Shown one piece after another: positions 19,365 to 51,299 of a stretch of 64,000 bases of DNA. Each line of letters opens with the position of its first letter. Position 1 is the stretch's first letter. Source of the stretch: Firmicutes bacterium HGW-Firmicutes-9 (GTDB taxonomy: Bacteria > Bacillota > Clostridia > Christensenellales > CAG-138); contig PGZM01000003.1 of NCBI GenBank assembly GCA_002841395.1, forward strand, positions 130,554 through 194,553. Reading direction: 5' to 3'. The translations under genes and the position numbers were made by a program. The notes under the pieces were generated by a model. That model was not told where the DNA came from, made no database searches, and saw only the letters and a list, made by a program, of their open reading frames with translations.

Positions 19365-19371
19365 TCATAAC

Positions 19372-19657
19372 AAAAGCTGTGACGAAGACGGACGGACAGG
19401 CCGCGTTTAGAGAGCCGGAGAGGGTGGAAACCCGGCGGTGCGCATGTTCAAGATCCCATCCCTTCCGAGCTGAAGACTGGAAAGGCGCGCTGAAAAGCGC
19501 AGCGCCGTGTAGAGCCTTCCGTAGATGCCGCGTCAAGGCATAGGGCTTGTCAGAGCCTGCTGAGCGGCACAGAAATGCGCAATTTGAGTGGTACCGCGGG
19601 GAATGCGATCGAACCGATCACCCGTCTCAAGAGGATATCTTGCGACGGGTTTTTTTG
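19372..19657 (+). ncRNA. T-box riboswitch leader, probably Ile-specific
   Basis: Stem I with GA motif (GCTGTGACGAAG...CTTCCGAGC), AGAGAG and GGTGGAA elements, T-box AATTTGAGTGGTACCGCG (19581-19598), and terminator ACCCGTC...GACGGGT plus T-run. ATC triplets occur in the specifier region. Confidence 0.88.
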
Positions 19658-38440: not shown

Positions 38441-40750
38441 ATGGGCAAACTGTTTCAAAATAAGAAATTCCAAAATACGATGTTCTTCTTTGCGACGCTG
38501 ACATCCGTGATCTATTTGATATGGCGTGCGGTGTTTACGCTGCCGCTCAAAGAGGGCATCATCGCGTTGATCTTTGGTATTATGCTGCTGGTGAGCGAGA
38601 TTACCTCGGCGCTGGGTACCTATGAGCTCTATTACCGCAAGAACCGCTCCAACAAGGTGGATCTTTCGCTGCCGGAAATTCCGCACAGCTGGTATCCGGA
38701 TATCGACGTTCTGGTCGCCACCCATAACGAGCCGGTCGAGCTGCTCTTTAAAACCGTGAATGCCCTGACCTACATGGATTATCCGGACAAGAGCAAGGTG
38801 CACATCTATATTGCAGACGACGGAAACCGTCCCGCAATGGCGCAGCTCGCGCAACAGCTGGGCGTGGGCTATTTTGCGCTTGCGAATAATAAGGAAGCCA
38901 AGAGCGGAAACCTCAATAATGCTTTGCGGCAGACGAAATCTCCGCTGGTTGCGACGTTTGACGCGGATATGATCGCGCGCAAAGAGTTTCTGATGCAGAC
39001 CGTGCCGTATTTCTTCCTGCCGCGTGTGCAGCATAAGGACGGCAAATGGATTCTGCGTAAGCAGGAGGAGGTCGATCCCAATTACAAGATCGGCTTTATC
39101 CAGACACCGCAGAGCTTTTATAACCCGGACTTGTTCCAATTCAACCTCTATTCGGAGCAGAACATCCCGAACGAACAGGACTTCTTCTCGCGCGAGATCA
39201 ACGTTATGCGCAACAGCACCAACGCCGTGGCCTACACCGGTAGCAACACGGTAATTGCGCGGCAGGCGCTGGATGAGATCGGCGGGTTCCCGACGGATAC
39301 GATCACAGAGGACTTTGAAACCGGCATCAAGATACAGAGCAAGGGCTATACCGCATATTCCACGGTGCAGCCGCTGGCAAGCGGATTAGCTCCGACGAGC
39401 ATCAAGAGCATGGTCACCCAGCGTGTTCGTTGGGCGCGCGGCGTGATTCAATCCATCCGCAACACGAAACTGATCTCCAACAAGGGCCTTTCCGTAAGCG
39501 CGCGGATCAGCTATCTGCTGTCGTATTCCTATTGGTGGTCATTCGGGCGCAGACTCGTGTTTACCTTCGCGCCGATCATGTTTGCGCTGTTTGACCTGCA
39601 GGTTGTCAACACCACGTTCTGGGGGATTATGGCGATCTGGGGTCCGCAATACATCTTCTACACGCTCGCCGTTCGCAGCCTTTCCAGCGACACGAGAAAC
39701 CAGCGCTGGAATCAGATCATCGATACGATCCTTGCGCCGTTTATGGTGATTCCTGTGTTCCTTGAAACCATCGGCATCAAACAGTTGAAGTTCAAGATCA
39801 CAGACAAGAGCCAGAGCAAGCCCCAGAACAGCAACCTCGTCTACATCATTCCGCAGCTGGTCATGCTCGGCATGTCCATCGCGGGCTTGATCCGCTACCT
39901 CGGCGGCAAATATGGCGTTGCGCTGTTCTACAGCAGCTTCATCGCCTTCTGGCTCATTCTGAACATCACGAACCTGCTGTACGCCGTGTATTTCATGATG
40001 GGTCGCAAAGCGTATCGCTCGAGTGAGCGTTTTGCCGCGGAAATCCCTGTGACACTCAACTACTGCGGAAAGACGTTTTCGGCGGTGACCAAGAACATCT
40101 CCGAAGGCGGATTCCTCTTTGAACTGGAGCATCCGGCATATCTGCCGGACGACGCGCCGCTGGAGTTCACGCTCAAGAGCGAAAAATACAGCGCAACCGT
40201 ACAGGGAAAGATCGTCTACATCAACAGCGCGGGCAACAAGTGGCTCTATCATGTGCAGCTTGTGCCGGGCATGACAGAGCACGACACGCGGGAGTATCTA
40301 CAGCTGGTCTATGACCGCCAGCACTCTTTGCCGAAGTCGATGAATATCTGGGTGACGGCGTTTGACGATCTCGTCAACAACGCAAGCCAGCGTCTGGATC
40401 AGAAGCATTCCGAAATGCGCGCGCTGCCGCGCATCCAACTCAACCGCTTTGTGCGGTTTGAAGAGGGCGTCAGCGGCACGATGATCGACTTCAACTTCAA
40501 GTTTGTGCTCATGCGCGGACTGAGCGAGAGCGCGGATACGCTCACGCTTGTGCCGCGGGCCGGTATCCGCATCGAGCTGGAGAACACGAAGAAAGCCATG
40601 GCGACGCCGGGCGTGATTCTCTACCGTGTGGTCAACTGGGAACAGCTCGCTTCCAGCAAAGCGTTTCAGACGCTGCTGGAGGACTGGATTTTCGAATATC
40701 AGAACGGTACCGCAAAGCCGCGCAGCAAGAAAAAGCGAGCTGCTTTGTAA
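38441..40750 (+). CDS. Processive GT2 synthase, cellulose synthase BcsA-like, with C-terminal PilZ
   Basis: DDG, AKSGNLN, FDAD, QTPQSF, TED, QRVRW, FKITDK, PilZ RSSER...NISEGG, and a second RALPR motif. Confidence 0.88.
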   Translation: MGKLFQNKKFQNTMFFFATLTSVIYLIWRAVFTLPLKEGIIALIFGIMLLVSEITSALGTYELYYRKNRSNKVDLSLPEIPHSWYPDIDVLVATHNEPVELLFKTVNALTYMDYPDKSKVHIYIADDGNRPAMAQLAQQLGVGYFALANNKEAKSGNLNNALRQTKSPLVATFDADMIARKEFLMQTVPYFFLPRVQHKDGKWILRKQEEVDPNYKIGFIQTPQSFYNPDLFQFNLYSEQNIPNEQDFFSREINVMRNSTNAVAYTGSNTVIARQALDEIGGFPTDTITEDFETGIKIQSKGYTAYSTVQPLASGLAPTSIKSMVTQRVRWARGVIQSIRNTKLISNKGLSVSARISYLLSYSYWWSFGRRLVFTFAPIMFALFDLQVVNTTFWGIMAIWGPQYIFYTLAVRSLSSDTRNQRWNQIIDTILAPFMVIPVFLETIGIKQLKFKITDKSQSKPQNSNLVYIIPQLVMLGMSIAGLIRYLGGKYGVALFYSSFIAFWLILNITNLLYAVYFMMGRKAYRSSERFAAEIPVTLNYCGKTFSAVTKNISEGGFLFELEHPAYLPDDAPLEFTLKSEKYSATVQGKIVYINSAGNKWLYHVQLVPGMTEHDTREYLQLVYDRQHSLPKSMNIWVTAFDDLVNNASQRLDQKHSEMRALPRIQLNRFVRFEEGVSGTMIDFNFKFVLMRGLSESADTLTLVPRAGIRIELENTKKAMATPGVILYRVVNWEQLASSKAFQTLLEDWIFEYQNGTAKPRSKKKRAAL

Positions 40751-40878
40751 GAGAGAACAACGTAAACACATGTCCTCCGCGGGATTTCCCGCGGGGGACT
40801 ATGCTATAATGAATCTACCGAATTGACGTATAATAAGCAACACGAGAACATCCTGAAACAGAGGAGTGTGACGACTGC

Positions 40879-42741
40879 ATGGCGATACTATTGACCGTTT
40901 TACGCTTGCTAGCGTTTCTGCTTTCCGCCGTGGGCTATGTCGCCATCGCGCGGGCCTATTGGAAGATCACCGCGCGCGCAAGCTACATCTTCGTTTTTTC
41001 CGCGCAGGCGTTGATCGTGTATTTCGCGGGGCTGATCGGCGTGCTGCCGTATGTTGCCTATGCGCTCTTCGGCGGCGGCATCGTTGCGCTCGTCGCGCTG
41101 ATACTCAACAAAAAGATCGCGCAAGCATTTAACAGAACGTCGCTCAGCGCGATCAATCTCGCGTTCATCGCGGTGTTCGGCGCAATCAGCGCATCGCTGA
41201 TCGAAACCAGATTTGTGCACTACGATAATTTCTCGCACTGGGCGGTCGTGGTGAAATACATGCTCGCGACAAACCGCATCCCCGATGCTGCGAGCGCGAT
41301 CATCGACTTTAAGAGCTATCCGCTGGGCAGCTCTTCGTTTCTCTACTATGTCGGCCGCATCGTCGGTAACGGCGAAGGCGTGATGCTGGTGGGTCAGGGA
41401 ATATTGCTGTTTGCGAGTTTCTATGCCGTGTTCGGCGCGATTCGCGACCAGAAGCGATTCCTTCTTGCCGCGCTGCTCGGGCTCGGCTGCACCGTAATGG
41501 CGATTTTCAACATCAGCATTCGCATCAACAACCTGCTTGTCGACTTCCTGCTGCCAGCCCTGGCGCTTGCCAGCATCGGCATCCTGCTTGTCGAGCGCAA
41601 ACGGTTTTTTACCGCGTGCCTTGCGGTGCTTCCGGTGCTTGGGCTGCTGATTATCGTGAAAAACACCGGCGTAATATTTGCGCTGTTCGGATTTGTGTTT
41701 TTGATTTATCGATCCGTGCAATTCCAGCGCGAGGACGCAAAGCTCCGGCCTTACTTCTGGAGCGCGCTGTTGATCATCGGACTTTCGCTTCTGCCGCTGA
41801 TCCTCTGGAACGTGCATACGTCGCTTGCGTTTCCGACCGACGCTGGCAAGTTCAGCTACGATTTTCAGACGCTCTCGTCTTTTACGATCGATAAAACACC
41901 CGTGCAGATTCAGTATATCGTGCAGCTGTTCCTCTACACGACAACCTCGCTCTCTCAACTGCCGACGCTGGGATTTTTGATCTTCAACGGCGTTGCGCTG
42001 GTGAGCTATTTGGTTGCGCGGTTTGTGTTCCACAAAAAGTGGAAACTGCTGGGCACGCTGCTGCTGCTCGACCTTGCGGTGGTGCTCTATTATGGCGGCA
42101 TTCTTGCGATGTATATCCTCTCGATGCCGATTGACGAGGCGCTTCGCCTCGCGGGGTTCGACCGATATGCTTCGAGCATGATCCTCTTCCTCATTGGCGT
42201 GGTATCTATGCGGTTGACGATGGATGTGGAAAACTCGTTTTACTACCAGCAGGGTGAGCAACGGGATTACCGGGCGTTTAAGAGCCTGACTACGAAAAAC
42301 ATCTACCAAACGGCGACGCTGCTATTATCCCTCGTTGCGGGATTGCTGCTGCTGTCCGAGCTCAACGGCATGAACCATATGCGCGAGGCGTATCAAGAGA
42401 GCCTGCCCGCGCGCGTTTCCGCGGTGACGGGGGACAACTGGCATGCGCCGGACAACGACACGCGATATCTGTTCTATTCCTCGGATGCGGGCGGTGAAGT
42501 GTCGAGCTACGAGCTGCCGTATGTCGGGCGATATTTCCTATTTGCGTCGCAGGTAGATGCCGTCAGCGCGTTTACGGATGATGCGTTTATGGGGCAGATT
42601 CAAACCTATGACAAGTTCGTGATTTTGGAGAGTACGCCCGAAATTCGGGCATATATGCAGGCGCACGCAAACCTGCCCGGCGAGGTCGGCATCTACGACG
42701 TAAGGGAGACGTTCCCCGAAGCCGAGATACCGCAAGCATGA
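40879..42741 (+). CDS. Polytopic membrane protein, possibly GT-C-like glycosyltransferase or glycan modifier
   Basis: 620 aa with many TM segments. First external loop YDNFSHW...YPLG, plus DFLL, IVKNTG and FDRY, and a soluble C-terminal domain. Confidence 0.5.
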   Translation: MAILLTVLRLLAFLLSAVGYVAIARAYWKITARASYIFVFSAQALIVYFAGLIGVLPYVAYALFGGGIVALVALILNKKIAQAFNRTSLSAINLAFIAVFGAISASLIETRFVHYDNFSHWAVVVKYMLATNRIPDAASAIIDFKSYPLGSSSFLYYVGRIVGNGEGVMLVGQGILLFASFYAVFGAIRDQKRFLLAALLGLGCTVMAIFNISIRINNLLVDFLLPALALASIGILLVERKRFFTACLAVLPVLGLLIIVKNTGVIFALFGFVFLIYRSVQFQREDAKLRPYFWSALLIIGLSLLPLILWNVHTSLAFPTDAGKFSYDFQTLSSFTIDKTPVQIQYIVQLFLYTTTSLSQLPTLGFLIFNGVALVSYLVARFVFHKKWKLLGTLLLLDLAVVLYYGGILAMYILSMPIDEALRLAGFDRYASSMILFLIGVVSMRLTMDVENSFYYQQGEQRDYRAFKSLTTKNIYQTATLLLSLVAGLLLLSELNGMNHMREAYQESLPARVSAVTGDNWHAPDNDTRYLFYSSDAGGEVSSYELPYVGRYFLFASQVDAVSAFTDDAFMGQIQTYDKFVILESTPEIRAYMQAHANLPGEVGIYDVRETFPEAEIPQA

Positions 42742-42824
42742 AACGATTTGGAAGACCGCTCTGGATAACAGGGCGGTTTTCTACTGCTCAGAGAATATAT
42801 GATATATATTTTTCGCAAATACTA

Positions 42825-42853
42825 TTGCAATTTTTGCGCGGGCGTGGTAAATT
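42825..42853 (+). promoter_or_regulatory. Promoter of the aro operon
   Basis: TTGCAA (42825-42830), 17 bp, TAAATT (42848-42853), with extended -10 TG. Confidence 0.6.
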
Positions 42854-42894
42854 ATCAACAATCTCGGCGTTGGCCGGACAGAAAGAAGCGTTTT

Positions 42895-42990
42895 ATGACC
42901 CGCATTGCAAACGCAGCAGAATATCGTTACTTTAGCTTTACCGGCTACTTTTACGGTAAGGCTGGTTTCGGTTTGGCGCAGCAAGGGTGA
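42895..42990 (+). CDS. Tyr/Phe-rich attenuator leader peptide (31 aa)
   Basis: MTRIANAAEYRYFSFTGYFYGKAGFGLAQQG, with 4 Tyr and 4 Phe. Purine-rich RBS GAAAGAAG. Lies upstream of a terminator and aroF. Confidence 0.75.
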   Translation: MTRIANAAEYRYFSFTGYFYGKAGFGLAQQG

Positions 42991-43025
42991 TCGGGTAGAA
43001 AAAACGCCGCATACGATCGCATCGC

Positions 43026-43054
43026 ACCGCAGCCAAACAGGCTGCGGTTTTTTT
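43026..43054 (+). terminator. Attenuator terminator of the aro operon
   Basis: ACCGCAGCC-aaaca-GGCTGCGGT plus T-run, 20 nt before the aroF start. Confidence 0.85.
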
Positions 43055-43074
43055 ACAGGCGGAGGGAGAAAATT

Positions 43075-44094
43075 ATGATCGTCATACTCAAACCAAACCC
43101 CAATCCGGATCAACTGGAGAGCCTCAAAAACTGGCTGCTCGGTAAGGGCATCCAGATCCACACCAGCCTCGGCACAACGCAGATGATTCTGGGCCTCGTC
43201 GGGGACACATCCACGCTGGATATCGACCTCATCAGCGCGCTGGATATCGTCGAAGACGTCAAGCGCGTGCAGGAGCCGTATAAAAACGCCAACCGTAAGT
43301 TTCATCCGGAGGACACCGTCATCCCCGTTGGCAACACGCAAATCGGCGGCGGGACGCTGACTATTATGGCGGGACCCTGCTCGGTCGAGAGCGAAGCGCA
43401 GATCGTCGCGGTCGCCAAGGCCGTGAAAGCGAGCGGTGCTACCATGCTCCGCGGTGGCGCGTTCAAGCCGCGCACCTCGCCTTATGCCTTCCAGGGCATG
43501 GGCGCGCAGGGCATCGAACTATTAAAACTCGCCCGCGCGGAGACGGGGCTGCCAATTGTCAGCGAGATCATGGACGCTTCTCAGCTTCCGCTGTTCGACG
43601 ATGTGGATGTGATTCAGGTCGGCGCGCGCAACATGCAGAACTTCAATTTATTGAAGGTGCTCGGCGCGCAGGAAAAACCCGTCATGATCAAGCGCGGACT
43701 CTCCTCGACCTATGAAGAATGGCTCATGAGCGCGGAATACGTCATGGCGAGCGGCAACGAGAAGGTCATTCTCTGCGAGCGCGGCATCCGCACCTTTGAA
43801 ACCTACACGAGAAACACACTTGACCTCGCGGCGGTTCCGGTGCTCCGGCACCTGACGCATCTTCCGGTGATCATCGATCCCAGCCACGCAACGGGCAGAT
43901 ACGCACTTGTTGCGCCGCTCGCGATGGGCGCGGTGGCGACAGGCTGCGACGGACTCTTAATCGAGGTGCACAACGATCCCGCCCATGCAATGAGCGACGG
44001 ACCGCAGTCCCTCAATCCGGAAGCATTCGACAAGCTCAACAGCAGAATTCTCGCACTGCACGCGTTTATGACCAGTGGGGAGGGAAGAGCGTGA
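43075..44094 (+). CDS. aroF: DAHP synthase (type I-beta, with N-terminal regulatory domain)
   Basis: AGPCSVE, RGGAFKPRTSPY, QVGARNMQNF, KRG, CERGIRT, DPSHATG, SDGPQSL. Confidence 0.95.
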   Translation: MIVILKPNPNPDQLESLKNWLLGKGIQIHTSLGTTQMILGLVGDTSTLDIDLISALDIVEDVKRVQEPYKNANRKFHPEDTVIPVGNTQIGGGTLTIMAGPCSVESEAQIVAVAKAVKASGATMLRGGAFKPRTSPYAFQGMGAQGIELLKLARAETGLPIVSEIMDASQLPLFDDVDVIQVGARNMQNFNLLKVLGAQEKPVMIKRGLSSTYEEWLMSAEYVMASGNEKVILCERGIRTFETYTRNTLDLAAVPVLRHLTHLPVIIDPSHATGRYALVAPLAMGAVATGCDGLLIEVHNDPAHAMSDGPQSLNPEAFDKLNSRILALHAFMTSGEGRA

Positions 44095-44927
44095 ACGTCG
44101 GCATCGTCGGCCTCGGCCTCATCGGTGGCTCGATGGCAAAAAGCATCAAGGTGCGCACGGCGAACACCGTCTGGGGCATAGATCTCGATGCGGAGACGAT
44201 GACGCTTTCGCGTCTCAGCGGCGCCATCGACGGCGCGCTGACGGCGGAGAATCTTCCGCTGTGCGATCTGGTGCTCGTCGCGATTCGTCCGGCGGCGGCT
44301 GTCGCCTGGGTGAAGGAACATGCGCCGCTGTTTTCAAAATCAACGATTTTGGTGGATCTTTGCGGCGTCAAGCGCAGCGTTTGCGAGCAGCTTGCGCCGA
44401 TTGCCAAGGAGTACGGCTTTGCCTACATCGGCGGACACCCGATGGCGGGGCGTGAGCGCGGCGGATTTGTCCACTCCAGCGAGGAGCTATTCACGGGCGC
44501 ATCGATGATTCTCACGCCCGATCAGAGCACGGACATGCGCATGCTCGAAACGCTCAAAGCGTTCTTCACAGACATCGGCTTTGCGGGACTGACCTTCTCC
44601 ACGCCGGAGGAGCACGACCGCATCATTGCCTACACGTCTCAGCTTGCGCATCTGGTCTCGAGTGCGTACATCAAATCGCCCGAGGCGCAAAGACGGCGCG
44701 GGTTCTCCGCGGGCAGCTTTCGGGATATGACGCGTGTGGCGCACCTCGACGAGGCGATGTGGACGGAGCTGTTTTTAGACGATGCAGATTATCTTGCCGA
44801 GCAGCTCGATATCTTAATCGACCATCTCAGCGAATACCGCGCGGCGCTCAAGGCGCACGACGCGGAGCAGTTACAGGCGCTGTTGAAAGACGGGCGCGAA
44901 AAGAAAGCCACGGCGGGAGGGAACTAA
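44091..44927 (+). CDS. tyrA: Prephenate dehydrogenase
   Basis: GLGLIGGS, GGHPMAGRE, HDRIIAYTSQLAH, SFRDMTRVA. Confidence 0.92.
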   Translation: MNVGIVGLGLIGGSMAKSIKVRTANTVWGIDLDAETMTLSRLSGAIDGALTAENLPLCDLVLVAIRPAAAVAWVKEHAPLFSKSTILVDLCGVKRSVCEQLAPIAKEYGFAYIGGHPMAGRERGGFVHSSEELFTGASMILTPDQSTDMRMLETLKAFFTDIGFAGLTFSTPEEHDRIIAYTSQLAHLVSSAYIKSPEAQRRRGFSAGSFRDMTRVAHLDEAMWTELFLDDADYLAEQLDILIDHLSEYRAALKAHDAEQLQALLKDGREKKATAGGN

Positions 44928-44930
44928 GAC

Positions 44931-46001
44931 ATGCAGCAACGCGTCATCCCCGTTCGGGTGCGGGAAGGGTACCAGGCCGTGATCGGCGGCGGTCTGCTTC
45001 GTGAAAGCGGGCGGCTGCTGCGCGAAACGCTGGGCGACTGTCGCCTTGCGGTGGTGACGGACAGCAATGTCGCAACCCTGTATCTCAATCCGGTTCTGGC
45101 AAGCCTCACCGAGGCGGGATTTGATGCGTGCTCTTATGCATTCCCAGCGGGTGAAGCGCACAAACGCCTCGACACGCTCTCCGGTATGCTCGAGTTCTTT
45201 GCCGAACAGCATCTGACGCGCAAGGACTGCGTGGTCGCGCTCGGCGGCGGCGTCACAGGCGACATGGCCGGGTTTGCGGCCGGGTGTTACCTGCGCGGCG
45301 TGCGCTTTGCGCAGATTCCGACGACGTTGCTTGCCGCGGTGGATTCCTCCGTCGGCGGTAAGACCGCGGTCGATCTCGTGGCTGGTAAAAATCTTGCGGG
45401 ACTGTTCCATCAACCTTCGATCGTGATTTGCGATACCGACACGTTTGCGACACTCTCGCCGGACGAATTCGCAAACGGCGCGGCGGAGGCGATCAAGACC
45501 GGCATTCTCGACGACGAAACGCTGTTTTCGCTGTTTGAATCGGGCGATGTGCGCGCAAACATCCAGGAAATCGTCGCGCAGTGCGTCGCGTTCAAGGCGA
45601 AAATTGTGGAAGAGGACGAAACCGAGACGGGCATTCGCAAGACGCTCAACCTCGGCCACACCGCCGGTCACGCGATGGAACGCTGCAGCGATTATACGAT
45701 TCCGCACGGGCATGCGGTCGGCGCGGGGCTTGCGATCATCGCGCGCGCTTCCGAGCGGCTTGGCTGGGCAACCGCGCCGATTGCACGGTGCATCGAAGCC
45801 GCGCTCACAAGAAACGGGCTGCCCATCACAACAGAATTTACCCCCGAAGCGCTGGCAGAAGCCGCGCTCTCGGATAAAAAACGCGCGGGAGGAACGATCA
45901 CGATCGTGGTTCCGAGAAGCATCGGCGATTGCGCGCTGATCGATATCCCCGTCGGGCAGCTTGCGGACGTGTTCCGCGCAGGGTTGGAGGCGGACGCATG
46001 A
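44931..46001 (+). CDS. aroB: 3-dehydroquinate synthase
   Basis: GEAHK, ALGGGVTGD, PTTLLAAVDSSVGGKT, LNLGHTAGHA, HGHAV. Confidence 0.96.
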   Translation: MQQRVIPVRVREGYQAVIGGGLLRESGRLLRETLGDCRLAVVTDSNVATLYLNPVLASLTEAGFDACSYAFPAGEAHKRLDTLSGMLEFFAEQHLTRKDCVVALGGGVTGDMAGFAAGCYLRGVRFAQIPTTLLAAVDSSVGGKTAVDLVAGKNLAGLFHQPSIVICDTDTFATLSPDEFANGAAEAIKTGILDDETLFSLFESGDVRANIQEIVAQCVAFKAKIVEEDETETGIRKTLNLGHTAGHAMERCSDYTIPHGHAVGAGLAIIARASERLGWATAPIARCIEAALTRNGLPITTEFTPEALAEAALSDKKRAGGTITIVVPRSIGDCALIDIPVGQLADVFRAGLEADA

Positions 46002-47251
46002 TCGCCCGCATCGCGCCCGCGCAACTTGGCGGAACGGTGGCTGCCATCGCGTCAAAGTCCGACGCGCACCGCCTCTTGATCCTCGCTGCACTCAGCCGCG
46101 GCGAGACAAAGCTTTTGATGGAGAAACGCTCGGAGGATATCGACGCGACGATCTGCTGCCTGCGTGCGTTGGGCGCAACCATCGAGATTTTGCCGGATGG
46201 TGTAGCTGTCCGCGGCATCGAGCGCGTGAATGAAAATCCCCGGCTTGACTGCGGTGAAAGCGGCTCCACGTTTCGATTTATGCTTCCCGTGGCGTGCGCG
46301 CTGTGCGAACAGGCACGCTTCACGGGCTCCGGCAGACTGCCGGAGCGACCCATCGGGGAGCTCATGCGGGTCATGCAGGCGCACGGCGTCGCGTTCTCCG
46401 CGGAGCGATTGCCGTTTGCAACAACGGGCAAGCTCGCGGGCGGCGATTTCGCCCTGCCGGGCAACGTAAGCTCGCAATACCTGACCGGACTGCTGCTCGC
46501 GCTGCCGTTTGCAAAAGGCGACAGCACGATTTCGCTCACCACACGGTTGGAATCCGCGGCGTATGTGGACATAACGCTGTACGCGTTGCAGCGTTTCGGT
46601 ATACAGGTTCGCTTGGAAAATGGTGGCTACACCGTCCCGGGCGGACAAGCGAGCCTCTCACCCGGCGAGCTGCGCGTGGATGGCGACTGGTCGAATGCCG
46701 CGTTTTTCCTCGCGGCAGGCGCGCTGGGCAATCCTATCACGATGACGGGCTTGCGCCTGGATTCGCCACAGGGCGACAAAGCAATGTTGGATGCACTGCG
46801 CAAGTTCGGCGCAAATGTCGAGGCAACGAGTGAAGCGGTGACGGTATCACCCGCGCGGCTCTCGGGATGCACCATCGACGTCAGCGAAACACCCGATCTG
46901 TTGCCGATCCTCGCCGTGCTCGGTGCATGCGCGGAGGTCGAAACGCGACTCGTCAATGCTGCGCGGCTGCGGCTCAAAGAGAGCGACCGACTCGTCTCCG
47001 TTTCCGCGATGCTCCGCGCGCTCGGCGGCACGGTACAAGAGCTGCCGGATGCGCTCGTGATTACGGGCGGGCGGCTCGTCGGCGGCACGGTAGACAGCGT
47101 TCGCGATCATCGTATTGCGATGTCCGCCGCGATTGCCTCGATTCGTTGCGCTGAGGAAGTGACCATTCTCGATGCGGATGCGGCAAGCAAGTCGTATCCT
47201 GCGTTTTATCACGATTTTAACAGGCTGGGAGGGCATGCAGATGTCGTCTGA
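45998..47251 (+). CDS. aroA: EPSP synthase
   Basis: SKSDAHR, CGESGSTFRF, SSQYLTG, LRLKESDR, DHRIAM, KSYP. Confidence 0.96.
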   Translation: MIARIAPAQLGGTVAAIASKSDAHRLLILAALSRGETKLLMEKRSEDIDATICCLRALGATIEILPDGVAVRGIERVNENPRLDCGESGSTFRFMLPVACALCEQARFTGSGRLPERPIGELMRVMQAHGVAFSAERLPFATTGKLAGGDFALPGNVSSQYLTGLLLALPFAKGDSTISLTTRLESAAYVDITLYALQRFGIQVRLENGGYTVPGGQASLSPGELRVDGDWSNAAFFLAAGALGNPITMTGLRLDSPQGDKAMLDALRKFGANVEATSEAVTVSPARLSGCTIDVSETPDLLPILAVLGACAEVETRLVNAARLRLKESDRLVSVSAMLRALGGTVQELPDALVITGGRLVGGTVDSVRDHRIAMSAAIASIRCAEEVTILDADAASKSYPAFYHDFNRLGGHADVV

Positions 47252-48329
47252 ATTCGGAAACACCCTGCGCGTAAGCGTATTTGGCGAGTCTCACGGGCGC
47301 GCCATCGGCGTCACGATGCAGAACCTGCCCGCAGGCGAAGAGATCGATCTCAACGCGCTGGAGGCGTTACTAGACCGGCGTAAGCCGGGCAAAAACGCGC
47401 TGTCCACCGCGCGGCATGAGCCGGATCGGCCTGTGATTCTCTCCGGCTTACTCGAAGGGAAAACGACCGGCAGCCCGCTCTGCGCGATCATCGAAAATCG
47501 CGACGCGCGCTCCCGCGACTATGCGGAACTCGCGGACAAACCCCGGCCCGGACACGCGGACTACACCGCCTATCTCAAGTGGGCAGGGCAGGCGGATATG
47601 CGCGGAGGCGGACACTTTTCTGGTAGGCTGACAGCGCCTCTGTGCATCGCGGGCGGCATCGCAAAACAGATTCTCGCACGCAAGAATATCTTCGTCGGCG
47701 CGCACCTCGCTGCCGTCGCGGGCATCGCGGACGAAGCCTTCCCGCTGCATCCGACGCAGACACAGTTTGACGAGATCGCAGGAAAAGACTTTCCCGTGAT
47801 CGACGACGCAAGGGGCTGCGACATGCAGGAAGCGATTCTAGCCGCGTCTCACGCGGGAGATTCTGTCGGCGGCGTGATCGAATGCGCGGCAATCGGCGTT
47901 CCCGGCGGCATCGGAAACCCGATGTTCGACGGCATCGAAAACAGGCTTTCCGCAGCGATCTTCGGTATCCCCGCCGTGAAGGGGCTGGAGTTTGGCGCAG
48001 GATTTGCGGCAGCCGCCATGCACGGCAGCGAGAACAACGACCCTTATCGCATGGATGATGCGGGAAACATCACCACGACCACGAACCACGCGGGCGGCAT
48101 TCTCGGCGGCATCTCGACGGGACAGCCAATCGTGCTGCGCGTAGCGATGAAGCCCACGCCTTCGATTGCAAAACCGCAGCAGACCGTGAGCCTTTCCAGA
48201 ATGGAAAACGCGGAGCTCATCGTTCATGGAAGACATGATCCCTGCGTCGCGCACCGCGCGGTGCCGGTGGTTGAGGCGGTGACAGCGCTCGTGCTGTTGG
48301 ACTTTTTACTGGAACAAACCAATCTTTAA
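47241..48329 (+). CDS. aroC: Chorismate synthase
   Basis: FGESHG, RPGHAD, RGGGHFSGR, GGILGGIS, KPTPSI, GRHDPC. Confidence 0.96.
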   Translation: MSSEFGNTLRVSVFGESHGRAIGVTMQNLPAGEEIDLNALEALLDRRKPGKNALSTARHEPDRPVILSGLLEGKTTGSPLCAIIENRDARSRDYAELADKPRPGHADYTAYLKWAGQADMRGGGHFSGRLTAPLCIAGGIAKQILARKNIFVGAHLAAVAGIADEAFPLHPTQTQFDEIAGKDFPVIDDARGCDMQEAILAASHAGDSVGGVIECAAIGVPGGIGNPMFDGIENRLSAAIFGIPAVKGLEFGAGFAAAAMHGSENNDPYRMDDAGNITTTTNHAGGILGGISTGQPIVLRVAMKPTPSIAKPQQTVSLSRMENAELIVHGRHDPCVAHRAVPVVEAVTALVLLDFLLEQTNL

Positions 48330-48387: not shown

Positions 48388-49527
48388 ATGGAAATCGAAC
48401 AGATTCGCAAACAGGTCGACGTTATCGACAGCCAGCTACTCAAGCTCTTTTTGGAGCGTATGCATCTCGGCGAAGAGATCGCAGCCTATAAGCGGAAGCA
48501 CAACCTGCCCGTGCTGAACAAATCGCGGGAGCGGGAAATCCTCGCGCGCGTGCAGCAGGAGGCGGGCGAGATGGAGCCGTATGCATATCAGCTCTTCACC
48601 ACGCTGATCGAGCTGAACAAAGTGCGCCAGACCGAGCTGTATTCGCCGCCGTCACGCGTGCGAACACAGATCGAAGGTGCGCTGGCAGCGCCGGAAGAGG
48701 TGTTCCCGCGTACGGGCACGATCGCGTGTCAGGGTGTCGAGGGCGCGAACTCTCAGGCGGCCTGCGACAAGATTTTGCCGCGTGGCAACATCATGTATGT
48801 CAAAAGCTTTGAGGCGGTGTTTGACGCGGTGGAATCCGGCCTGTGCCAGTTCGGCGTGCTGCCCATCGAAAACAGCGCGAACGGCTCCGTGCGCACGGTC
48901 TATGATCTGCTGCAGCGCAAGCGTTTCTCCATCGTGCGCGGTACGACGCTGCATATCCGCCATGAACTGCTTGCAAAGCCCGGCACAAAGCTTTCCGACA
49001 TCACGGAGATCTATTCCCACGAACAGGCGATCGGCCAGTGCAGCCGGTATCTTGCGAGCCTGAACGGCAAGGTGAAGGTGATTCCCTGCGCAAACACGGC
49101 GGTTGCGGCGAAGATGGTCGCAGAAGGCATCAACCCGCACGCGGCTGCAATCAGCTCGCATGCTTGCGCGGAACTCTACGGCTTAACCATGCTGCGCGAC
49201 GACATACAGGATAGCGAAAACAACTACACGCGCTTCATCTGCATCGCGAAGAACCCCATCATCTACGCGGGTTCGAACAAGATCAGCCTGATTCTGGACT
49301 GCAAAAACGAGCCGGGTGCGCTGAACAGCATTCTCACGAAGATCTCGGCCTACGGCGTGAACACCAGCAAGATTGAAAGCTGCCCAGTGACTGGGCGCAA
49401 CTTTGAGTTCATCTTCTTCTTTGACCTCGACGCAGGCGTGCGCGAGCAGGGCGTGCTGCCGATGCTGGAGGAGCTGGAGCGCATCAGCGAAAGCTTCACG
49501 TTCCTTGGCAACTATTCCATCATATAA
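48388..49527 (+). CDS. pheA: Bifunctional chorismate mutase / prephenate dehydratase
   Basis: N-terminal CM domain (IRKQVDVID...RE), LPIENS, SHEQAIGQC, NYTRF, and C-terminal ACT domain. Confidence 0.93.
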   Translation: MEIEQIRKQVDVIDSQLLKLFLERMHLGEEIAAYKRKHNLPVLNKSREREILARVQQEAGEMEPYAYQLFTTLIELNKVRQTELYSPPSRVRTQIEGALAAPEEVFPRTGTIACQGVEGANSQAACDKILPRGNIMYVKSFEAVFDAVESGLCQFGVLPIENSANGSVRTVYDLLQRKRFSIVRGTTLHIRHELLAKPGTKLSDITEIYSHEQAIGQCSRYLASLNGKVKVIPCANTAVAAKMVAEGINPHAAAISSHACAELYGLTMLRDDIQDSENNYTRFICIAKNPIIYAGSNKISLILDCKNEPGALNSILTKISAYGVNTSKIESCPVTGRNFEFIFFFDLDAGVREQGVLPMLEELERISESFTFLGNYSII

Positions 49528-49556: not shown

Positions 49557-50798
49557 ATGAAAGAGCGCATATACGGACTTCTCGGGCGGACGTTGAAGCA
49601 CAGTTTTTCTGTGCCGATTCATCGCGCGCTTGGAAACGACGGCTATGCGCTCTTTGAATTGGAGCCGGATGCGCTCGACGTATTTCTTTCGCGGGACGAC
49701 ATCGGCGGGCTGAACGTCACGATCCCCTATAAGCGGGATGTGATGGCGTATTGCGACGTGTTGGACGACACCGCGCGCGAGATCGGCAGCGTGAACACGA
49801 TTGTACGCCGCACGGACGGCAGGCTTGCGTGCTATAACACCGATGCGTACGGGCTGACATACATGGCATCCCGCGCGGGGATTACACTTTCGGGCAAAAA
49901 GGTCGTTATCCTCGGCAGCGGCGGCGCGTCGCTGACCGCACAATACGTTGCAAAGACGGCGGGTGCCGCCGAAACCGTCGTCGTTTCGCGGTCGGGAGAG
50001 AACGATTATCAAAACATCTCCCGCCACGCCGACGCGCAGATTTTGATCAACACGACCCCGGTGGGTATGTATCCGCATACGGGCGAGCTGCCGCTGGATC
50101 CCGCGCAGTTTCCGATGCTGCAAGGCGTGCTGGAGCTGGTCTACAACCCGCGCAGGACCGCGCTTGCGTTTCGCGCGGCGGAGCTGGGCATTCCCTGCGG
50201 CGAGGGATTGGCGATGCTTGTGGCGCAGGCGAAAGCCGCGGAGGAGCTGTTCTTTGGCTGCGCGATTGAGGACGCAGAAAACGAACGCATTCTCAAGCTC
50301 CTGCGGCAGACCACGCAGAACATCGTGCTCATCGGCATGCCGGGCAGCGGGAAGACGACCATCGGCGCGGCGCTTGCCAAACGGACGAACAGAACCGCAG
50401 TCGATCTGGACGAACAGATCGTGAAAGCAGCCGGAATGTCGATCCCGCAGATTTTTGCCACATCTGGCGAAGCCGCGTTCCGCGCAATGGAACGTGAGCA
50501 GGCGCAGAAGTGGGGCAAAGAGAGCGGGCTGATTCTCGTGACCGGCGGCGGCATCGTCAAGGACGAACGAAATTATCAGTCACTCAAGCAAAACGGACGC
50601 ATTTATGAGATCCAGCGTGACCTAGGGCTGTTGCCGCGCGAAGGAAGACCGCTCTCACAAAGCAGCGACCTTGCCGGGATGCAGCGCGAGCGCGCGCCGC
50701 TTTACAAACGCTTCCGTGATGTGGAGTTTGAGAACAGGACAACGCCGGAAGATGCGGCAAACCGCATCTGGCAGGATTTTTGCGACAACGTGGACTGA
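49557..50798 (+). CDS. aroE: Shikimate dehydrogenase - shikimate kinase fusion
   Basis: N-terminal NVTIPYK, SVNT, NTDAYG, GSGGA, NTTPVG. C-terminal IGMPGSGKTT, GEAAFR, TGGG, RPL. Confidence 0.92.
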   Translation: MKERIYGLLGRTLKHSFSVPIHRALGNDGYALFELEPDALDVFLSRDDIGGLNVTIPYKRDVMAYCDVLDDTAREIGSVNTIVRRTDGRLACYNTDAYGLTYMASRAGITLSGKKVVILGSGGASLTAQYVAKTAGAAETVVVSRSGENDYQNISRHADAQILINTTPVGMYPHTGELPLDPAQFPMLQGVLELVYNPRRTALAFRAAELGIPCGEGLAMLVAQAKAAEELFFGCAIEDAENERILKLLRQTTQNIVLIGMPGSGKTTIGAALAKRTNRTAVDLDEQIVKAAGMSIPQIFATSGEAAFRAMEREQAQKWGKESGLILVTGGGIVKDERNYQSLKQNGRIYEIQRDLGLLPREGRPLSQSSDLAGMQRERAPLYKRFRDVEFENRTTPEDAANRIWQDFCDNVD

Positions 50799-50814: not shown

Positions 50815-51243
50815 ATGAAGATTCTCGTGATTAACGGGCCGAACCTGAATATATTGGGACTTCGCGAGCCGGATATCTACGGTAAACGTACTTATTCTGA
50901 CTTGATTCAAATGATTCGCGAAGAGGCGGATCGGCTTGATGTTACAGTCGAGTTTGTCCAGAGCAACCATGAGGGTGCGCTGGTGGACGCGATACAAGGC
51001 GCGTATCAAACGGCGGACGGCATCGTCATCAACCCCGGAGCGTACACGCACACGAGCGTTGCGCTGCTGGACGCGGTGAAGGCTGTCGGCGTGCCGACGG
51101 TGGAAGTACATATCTCCGACCCCGATACCCGCGAGGAATTCCGCAAGGTGTCCTATATCCGCGCGGCTTGCGTCGCGAGCATCAAAGGCCACGGGCTGGA
51201 GGGATATCTCGAAGCGCTGCGCTTTCTGGCGAACAGAAAGTAA
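50815..51243 (+). CDS. aroQ: Type II 3-dehydroquinate dehydratase
   Basis: INGPNLNILGLREP.IYG, QSNHEG, INPGAYTHTS, EVHIS. Confidence 0.96.
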   Translation: MKILVINGPNLNILGLREPDIYGKRTYSDLIQMIREEADRLDVTVEFVQSNHEGALVDAIQGAYQTADGIVINPGAYTHTSVALLDAVKAVGVPTVEVHISDPDTREEFRKVSYIRAACVASIKGHGLEGYLEALRFLANRK

Positions 51244-51260: not shown

Positions 51261-51299
51261 AAAAAAAAGAGCTTCCGGTTGTTCGCCGGAAGCTCTTTC
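51261..51299. terminator. Bidirectional terminator at the end of the aro operon
   Basis: AAAGAGCTTCCGG...CCGGAAGCTCTTT. Confidence 0.8.

Follow-up and report, generated by a model that had tools for sequence, protein, structure and literature searches.

Introduction

In Clostridia, leader attenuators encoding Phe-Tyr-Phe (F-Y-F) before aroF were predicted by Stav et al. in 2019 (PMC6429828). As far as that description goes, the motif, uORF-13, has 336 examples in Firmicutes including Clostridiales, about half of them before aroF and the next commonest group before tyrA. It comprises a short ORF, which encodes F-Y-F within the loop of a hairpin (P1), and a terminator behind, and was proposed to be an 'aromatic amino acid attenuator' (PMC6429828). 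In the same outline uORF-12 is an F-Y-rich uORF attenuator candidate of Firmicutes that is sometimes found before shikimate genes (PMC6429828). In Corynebacterium glutamicum the aroR leader carries Phe-Tyr-Phe before an aroF operon and is an experimentally studied case of ribosome-mediated attenuation; in the part of the account used here it responded to Phe, not Tyr (PMC11802643). It was called structurally distinct from uORF-12 and uORF-13 in the section of PMC6429828 that treats them. Acholeplasma uORFC-13-1, as presented by Brewer et al. 2021 (PMC8632094), consists of a uORF and a terminator found exclusively before aroF, for which attenuation was proposed. In excerpt, PMC9413887 reports His-leader attenuators predicted in Firmicutes including Eubacteriales. 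Our search of the literature, with subscription papers and bioRxiv supplements outside its reach, found no report in which a clostridial Tyr/Phe leader had been tested by experiment.

Here we analyse a Tyr/Phe-rich leader before aroF within a stretch of 64,000 nucleotides from a clostridial genome (the window). An initial annotation of this DNA had proposed that the leader is a ribosome-read attenuator and that the arrangement might be undescribed. The second point does not hold, since the prediction of Stav et al., as given in PMC6429828, covers F-Y-F leader attenuators before aroF in Clostridia. Compared by description, the window leader in all likelihood belongs to uORF-13 or to a close sister family.

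Results

A Tyr/Phe-rich leader precedes an eight-gene operon

Downstream of the leader, profile matches (NCBIfam/Pfam) give the gene order aroF-tyrA-aroB-aroA-aroC-pheA-aroEK-aroQ, and these domain matches confirm the eight shikimate-Phe-Tyr genes named in the initial annotation.

43075..44094, + strand: aroF, DAHP synthase with an N-terminal ferredoxin-like regulatory domain (NF006421, TIGR01361, PF18152, PF00793)
44091..44927, + strand: tyrA, prephenate dehydrogenase (PF02153, PF20463; NCBIfam matches under cut-off)
44931..46001, + strand: aroB, dehydroquinate synthase (TIGR01357)
45998..47251, + strand: aroA, EPSP synthase (TIGR01356)
47241..48329, + strand: aroC, chorismate synthase (TIGR00033)
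48388..49527, + strand: pheA, chorismate mutase-prephenate dehydratase-ACT (PF01817, PF00800, PF01842)
49557..50798, + strand: aroE-aroK fusion, shikimate dehydrogenase plus shikimate kinase (NCBIfam matches to each half, under whole-protein cut-offs)
50815..51243, + strand: aroQ, type II dehydroquinase (TIGR01088)
51266..51298, + strand: terminator-like hairpin at the operon end (fold scan)

Neighbouring genes overlap or sit at most 58 nt apart, and because of this tight spacing the eight genes are probably co-transcribed. Both tyrA and pheA lie inside the operon, trp genes are absent from it, and tyrA directly follows aroF in 29/29 loci of the genus. The upstream neighbours (38441-42741) encode a cellulose-synthase-like glycosyltransferase and then a 620-aa membrane protein, the latter with no family match in NCBIfam or Pfam; this gene pair ends in its own hairpin near 42755-42785.

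The leader region contains the following elements.

42825..42853, + strand: predicted sigma-A-type promoter with extended -10 (TTGCAA, 17 nt, TG-n-TAAATT; sequence and 29/29 genus loci)
42864..42877, + strand: small 5'-UTR hairpin (fold; relatives' sequences)
42895..42990, + strand: leader ORF, 31 codons, with seven Tyr/Phe control codons within codons 10-20 and no Trp (ORF list; 29/29 genus loci)
42916..42925, + strand: segment 1 (codons 8-11), predicted to be able to pair with the antiterminator arm (RNAalifold consensus)
42934..42963, + strand: hairpin P1, whose loop holds codons 18-20, Y-F-Y in the window (fold; covariation)
42971..42979, + strand: segment 2, predicted antiterminator 5' arm, codons 26-28 (fold; covariation in the wider set)
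42987..43020, + strand: predicted inner helix, 42987-42993 with 43014-43020, spanning the stop codon (fold)
43026..43054, + strand: intrinsic terminator, a 9-bp stem (43026-43048) plus U-run, its 5' arm and loop being segment 3 (stem; conservation)

The ORF first described, with seven Tyr/Phe among residues 10-20, was read directly from the sequence: these residues are Y10, Y12, F13, F15, Y18, F19 and Y20, and one more Phe stands at codon 25. Given that Tyr and Phe codons together make up 5.5% of the operon, 7/11 has a probability of about 4e-7 per 11-codon frame, and this level is reached by only 7 of 28,862 short ATG-initiated ORFs genome-wide. The ribosome-binding site is weak (AGAAAGAAG). 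A longer, 63-codon version beginning at 42799 was rejected, as that start lies upstream of the promoter. The peptide has no family match in NCBIfam or Pfam; an exact look-up returned it solely as an unnamed entry and in one cluster with an unrelated 419-aa protein, which was judged a clustering artefact.

The promoter matches the consensus at 8/12 positions. A consensus promoter scanner run over the window did not list this site and instead marked 43052-43079, across the aroF start; despite this miss, the promoter of the initial annotation is borne out by the same pattern and fixed spacing in 29/29 genus loci. Just 5' of the -35 box (about 42795-42813) stands an AT-rich near-palindrome with a T-run behind it; it can be made out in the 29 genus loci and is a candidate UP element or operator. 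The window has a single copy of the GC hairpin at 42864-42877; in some relatives (L002, L003, L005, L006, L010, L011) two to four variants of it stand in tandem and stretch the 5' UTR from 41 to 140 nt. RNA contigs of relatives (4 of 14 runs listed, each with a small share) cover the leader and aroF in part; such contigs show neither transcript ends nor levels.

The leader ORF is conserved as a coding sequence within the genus

A same-genus search covered 36 genomes, 31 of which had an aroF match; 28 matches were examined together with the window's own locus, giving 29 loci, and three partial matches were left out. The Tyr/Phe-rich ORF is kept in every one of the 29. Its ATG lies exactly nine codons ahead of the first Tyr of the Tyr-Phe cluster (29/29), and each leader has seven or eight Tyr/Phe in codons 10-20, no Trp and a length of 31-35 codons (29/29). 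Codons 18-20 are drawn only from TAT, TAC, TTT and TTC, with Tyr and Phe interchanging: they read YYF in 13 loci, FYF in 11 and YFY in 5, the window belonging to the last. In frame, pN/pS was 0.28 for codons 10-20 and 0.36 for codons 8-28 versus 1.11 for codons 2-7, ratios that are confounded by RNA structure; the shifted frames gave 0.40-3.4 and carry stops in 25/26 and 26/26 distinct leaders.

These data bear on the alternative of an RNA switch, T-box-like or TRAP-like, that binds a protein or a tRNA and whose conserved U-rich sequence yields the ORF as a by-product. The genome has 13 T-boxes and the leader's ribosome-binding site is weak, as such a switch would allow; against it stand the invariant start codon at its fixed distance and the stops in both other frames. 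Nor was a matching RNA family found. At gathering scores no Rfam family over the whole window covers the leader, and a search of 42700-43150 at E up to 10 returned no T-box (RF00230), while the same search mode picks up the T-box at 19370-19632; the only matches in the leader, snoR77 and atpB (E 1.9-2.9), were put down to chance. We regard an RNA switch of this kind as highly unlikely, and the distant leaders described below speak against it as well.

The NusG-type pause motif TTNTTT, taken from the portion of PMC9226507 consulted, is absent from the window leader and present in 15/29 genus leaders, and so gives no support.

Tyr/Phe-rich leaders precede aroF beyond the genus

A wider set was assembled from 20 aroF loci, taken from 29 matches that 21 genomes outside the family but within the order had given, and 80 named loci (the best 80 of 598), and was reduced to 96 by removing three loci with less than 400 nt upstream and one duplicate. 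One further locus among the 29 matches was read separately. An ORF of 10-45 codons with at least six Tyr/Phe in 11 was found at 65/96 of these loci, a figure that includes the best-80-of-598 sample. At this threshold the reverse strand gave 3, and 20 dinucleotide shuffles gave a mean of 1.65 and a maximum of 6; with at least seven required, the counts were 45 loci versus 1 on the reverse strand and 0.35 in shuffles. Among the 65, at least L035 resembles an AT-rich ORF that arose by chance, and 9 of them hold a Trp. The distant leaders commonly show the in-frame codon bias, many with clear ribosome-binding sites, and share little sequence, which argues further against an ORF arising as a by-product of conserved RNA.

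All 65 hold both amino acids (258 Tyr, 319 Phe). This count weighs against a real attenuator that in practice reads a single amino acid, Phe as in C. glutamicum aroR or Tyr, with the mixed codons partly fixed by RNA structure. That reading draws on aroR itself, which despite its Phe-Tyr-Phe was unaffected by Tyr availability in the results seen in PMC11802643. It also draws on F13 and F15, which are invariant TTT in the genus, F15 falling within the P1 arm. Y10 and Y12, on the other hand, stay Tyr while their third base varies. We consider sensing of one amino acid unlikely and infer that both Tyr and Phe are sensed.

A second peptide-based alternative is a TnaC-like arrest peptide that senses a free aromatic amino acid, excess of which would stall the ribosome near codons 25-31 and cause termination. 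Segment 2 would indeed be masked by a ribosome stalled at codon 25 or beyond, and G21, K22, G26, L27 and A28, all outside the cluster, are invariant across the genus leaders. K22, G26 and L27, however, each use a single codon (AAG, GGT and TTG in 26/26 distinct leaders), as the RNA arms predict and unlike protein selection. In the wider set, moreover, the peptides vary freely save for their Tyr/Phe richness, and some stop right after the cluster. An arrest peptide is thus very improbable, and a leader decoded through its Tyr and Phe codons remains our preferred reading.

The records that carry such leaders include Oscillospiraceae, Lachnospiraceae, Acetobacterium, Vulcanibacillus, Kiritimatiellae and Treponemataceae, and the named relatives are mostly Clostridia. 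Tyr/Phe leaders before aroF were seen in L089, L091, L111, L078 and L118, whose records are titled Verrucomicrobia, Kiritimatiellae, Treponemataceae, Acetobacterium and Vulcanibacillus; transfer of the leader with the gene, or misbinning, is possible for these.

A covariance model run on genomes drawn from the whole class, irrespective of aroF, matched 26 of 150 scored genomes, the window's own included, which is a floor because only 18 candidates per genome were scored. The 25 matches in other genomes lie directly before aroF in 21 cases, before a pheA-like gene in one and before an unrelated ORF in one; for two no downstream gene was recovered. The match before the unrelated ORF (L151) has a Tyr-rich short ORF with 5 Tyr/Phe in 11, and the ORF behind it, of 486+ aa, is unrelated to the operon genes. 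Spacers of about 100-200 nt between terminator and aroF, with room for a second control, occur in L021, L062, L092, L111 and L155. Over the own genome the RNA model matched the aroF leader locus and no other. A separate scan of that genome for other leader-peptide attenuators passed 6 of 650 terminator-like sites through a strict short-ORF filter; besides the aroF leader, the same scan gave one Tyr/Phe-rich 43-aa ORF on C5, which was set aside because it probably encodes a small membrane protein and the gene behind it is unrelated.

The leader RNA is predicted to form exclusive antiterminator and terminator structures

The terminator placed before aroF at 43026-43054 was recovered with its 9-bp stem and U-run. 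Its stem is paired in 28/28 genus leaders, 9/9 pairs show two-sided change in the wider alignment, and a terminator of -10 kcal/mol or better is present in 64/68 leaders tested. When the transcript was folded without the terminator 3' arm, GTTTGGC (42971-42977) paired with GCCAAAC (43032-43038). Both pairings claimed in the initial annotation, this one and that of 42987-42993 with 43014-43020, appear in this fold, before the 3' arm exists. The inner helix (42987-43020) is not part of the genus consensus structure, which was built with RNAalifold on 28/29 loci, L021 being omitted for its longer spacer.

The antiterminator core hardly varies among the genus leaders: apart from two breaks, the changes are all from U-A to U-G, and no two-sided changes were found there. 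In the wider alignment, A2, which joins 17 genus leaders with 28 more picked by eye for likeness and whose kin are non-independent, 8/10 antiterminator pairs show two-sided changes (21 cells; 0/500 shuffles as high). An alignment-free test paired the stretch freed by a stalled ribosome with the terminator arm and gave a mean of -13.4 kcal/mol for own pairs versus -9.7 kcal/mol across species (0/10,000 permutations). Relatedness and base composition inflate both the covariation and the duplex tests. The window's own duplex does not beat its shuffles (p=0.115), whereas 26/64 leaders do beat theirs; support for the window antiterminator is comparative. The claim that antiterminator and terminator are mutually exclusive is supported by the folds together with covariation in the wider family, not within the genus.

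Two further helices, hairpin P1 and a long-range helix formed by codons 8-11, were both missed in the initial annotation. P1 shows two-sided change at 3/10 pairs in the genus and 4/8 in the wider alignment, so that among relatives P1 covaries already in the genus and the antiterminator with the terminator only across the wider family. Taken together, the two genus-consensus helices have 24 cells with two-sided change (0/500 shuffles as high). The long-range helix between segments 1 and 2 is paired in 94.6% of cells with no two-sided changes, and an A-G mismatch weakens it in 10/28 genus leaders, the window among them. Judged from these pairings the segment 1 helix is a candidate anti-antiterminator (protector), and P1 may be modelled as a candidate pause or timing hairpin.

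Predicted folds suggest a kinetic decision that the ribosome would set

These elements suggest a switch of the following form. When charged tRNA-Tyr or tRNA-Phe is scarce, the ribosome would stall on codons 10-20, and segment 2 (42971-42979), left uncovered, could pair with the 5' arm and loop of the terminator; the antiterminator would then form first and polymerase would read on into the eight genes. When Tyr and Phe are both in good supply, the ribosome would pass codon 24 and cover segment 2, the terminator would form, and transcription would stop near 43054. P1 may set the timing as a pause hairpin, and pairing of codons 8-11 with segment 2 could act as anti-antiterminator once the ribosome has left.

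Twenty-seven distinct leaders were folded as transcripts extending up to the emergence of segment 3, with 28 nt masked for the ribosome. The antiterminator formed in 26/27 leaders with codons 10-18 in the A-site, in 24/27 with codon 19 and in 21/27 with codon 20. It was blocked with codons 25 to 32 in the A-site, a zero that follows from the mask itself. The earlier proposal that a ribosome at the stop codon masks the antiterminator therefore stands as regards the masking of segment 2 but needs revision as to position, since masking is predicted from codon 25 on and not at the stop codon alone. Some observations speak against the simple scheme. With the ribosome on the stop codon, 4/9 of the longer leaders (34-35 codons) still fold the antiterminator. 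F25 sits where a stall would favour termination; codon 25 is Phe in 18/26 distinct genus leaders. With no ribosome, the antiterminator folds at the decision point in 17/27 leaders (in the window at 86%), so the off state would require the leader to be translated in time despite its weak ribosome-binding site.

On full-length RNA the five states compared all favoured the terminator, by 7-9 kcal/mol. Because it wins on the finished RNA in every state tested, the decision must be kinetic. This is typical of textbook attenuators. The same stability would suit a terminator acting as a constitutive leaky damper, with a peptide that has no regulatory role, but it would leave the conserved control codons, and the covariation that links segment 2 to the terminator loop, without an evident purpose, and we find this reading hardly credible.

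Taken together, conservation, codon swaps and covariation support a ribosome-read attenuator with exclusive antiterminator and terminator, as first proposed, and on this sequence evidence the leader is very probably a Tyr/Phe transcription attenuator heading the whole shikimate-Phe-Tyr operon.

T-boxes and terminator spacing in the genome

Among the 13 T-boxes of the genome, trpE and pheS each lie behind one. The attenuator logic fits this genome, since trpE and pheS are behind T-boxes, the leader has no Trp codons, and the Tyr and Phe branches are both in the operon. The T-box noted earlier at 19.4 kb is real (19370-19632; 48.9 bits, E=8.6e-10), although under the Rfam gathering score; it precedes a carbon-nitrogen hydrolase family gene and ilvE. 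Another T-box (G000:C8:181831-182135, - strand; locus L157) precedes a gene of the tryptophanase/tyrosine phenol-lyase family (NF009709), an enzyme normally degradative that, behind a starvation-type switch, is perhaps run in the synthetic direction.

Ribosome-read attenuation needs a ribosome near RNA polymerase, and a working clostridial example would thus bear on the generality of runaway transcription in Bacillota. In B. subtilis, according to the parts of PMC7858274 and PMC9226507 used here, polymerase outpaces the ribosome. Terminators lying only a few nucleotides after stop codons serve as a proxy for this in the sections seen of PMC7858274, and in the corresponding account of PMC9226507 pausing of the polymerase helps a uORF attenuator of B. 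subtilis to work. In the window's genome, 54/481 terminators after likely genes (11%) begin no more than 12 nt behind the stop codon; the median distance is 21 nt, and the counts jump sharply at 13-19 nt. The script was run on this genome alone, and a cruder pass of the count gave 20/292. On this count the genome looks coupled because its terminators avoid the first 12 nt after stops, unlike the B. subtilis proxy, and the organism may be one without Bacillus-type runaway transcription.

Discussion

The leader explains how Phe and Tyr synthesis is probably controlled, in the absence of T-boxes, in many Clostridia from the gut and the environment, and the analysis supplies a concrete switch model for a family predicted in 2019. 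The mechanism is textbook and the arrangement already in print, and the surprise is modest; what is new is the covariation-backed antiterminator, the full switch layout and a hint of coupling in the lineage. It is quite possible, though we put this tentatively, that a bivalent Tyr-plus-Phe ribosome sensor is the standard shikimate-Phe-Tyr control in many Clostridia, working because coupling is kept, unlike in B. subtilis. If so, the leader would be a ready reporter of coupling in Clostridia, and its off state would be set by the ribosome and not by a protector hairpin.

Like uORF-13 as outlined in PMC6429828, the window leader is a short ORF with P1 and a terminator before aroF/tyrA in Clostridia. 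It differs from that outline in its P1 loop, which reads Y-F-Y in the window (F-Y-F in 11/29 and Y-Y-F in 13/29 genus loci), and in a second Tyr/Phe run ahead of P1. As described in the portion of PMC6429828 available to us, uORF-13 comprises P1 and the terminator only, whereas an antiterminator is modelled for the window. In that same description uORF-12 lies mostly before transporters, its peptide is encoded just before P1 and its structure is more complex. The aroR leader, in what was seen of PMC11802643, belongs to Actinobacteria and has three control codons where the window leader has seven. For uORFC-13-1, the extract of PMC8632094 gives 24 examples with a U-run coding for at least one Phe, as a prediction only. 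The predicted His leaders of Firmicutes, in the passages taken from PMC9413887, have His codons, precede his operons and occur in few lineages.

The layout resembles that of E. coli trpL and pheL, as summarised in the relevant part of PMC11802643, in its control codons and in an antiterminator and terminator that share one segment. Unlike in trpL and pheL, the window's first hairpin does not overlap the antiterminator arm, and protection would come from the long-range helix or the ribosome. Multivalent thrL and ilvL attenuators have the same layout of control codons and an antiterminator and terminator sharing a segment. What sets the window leader apart from trpL, pheL, thrL and ilvL is that its one sensor heads a common pathway together with both of its branches.
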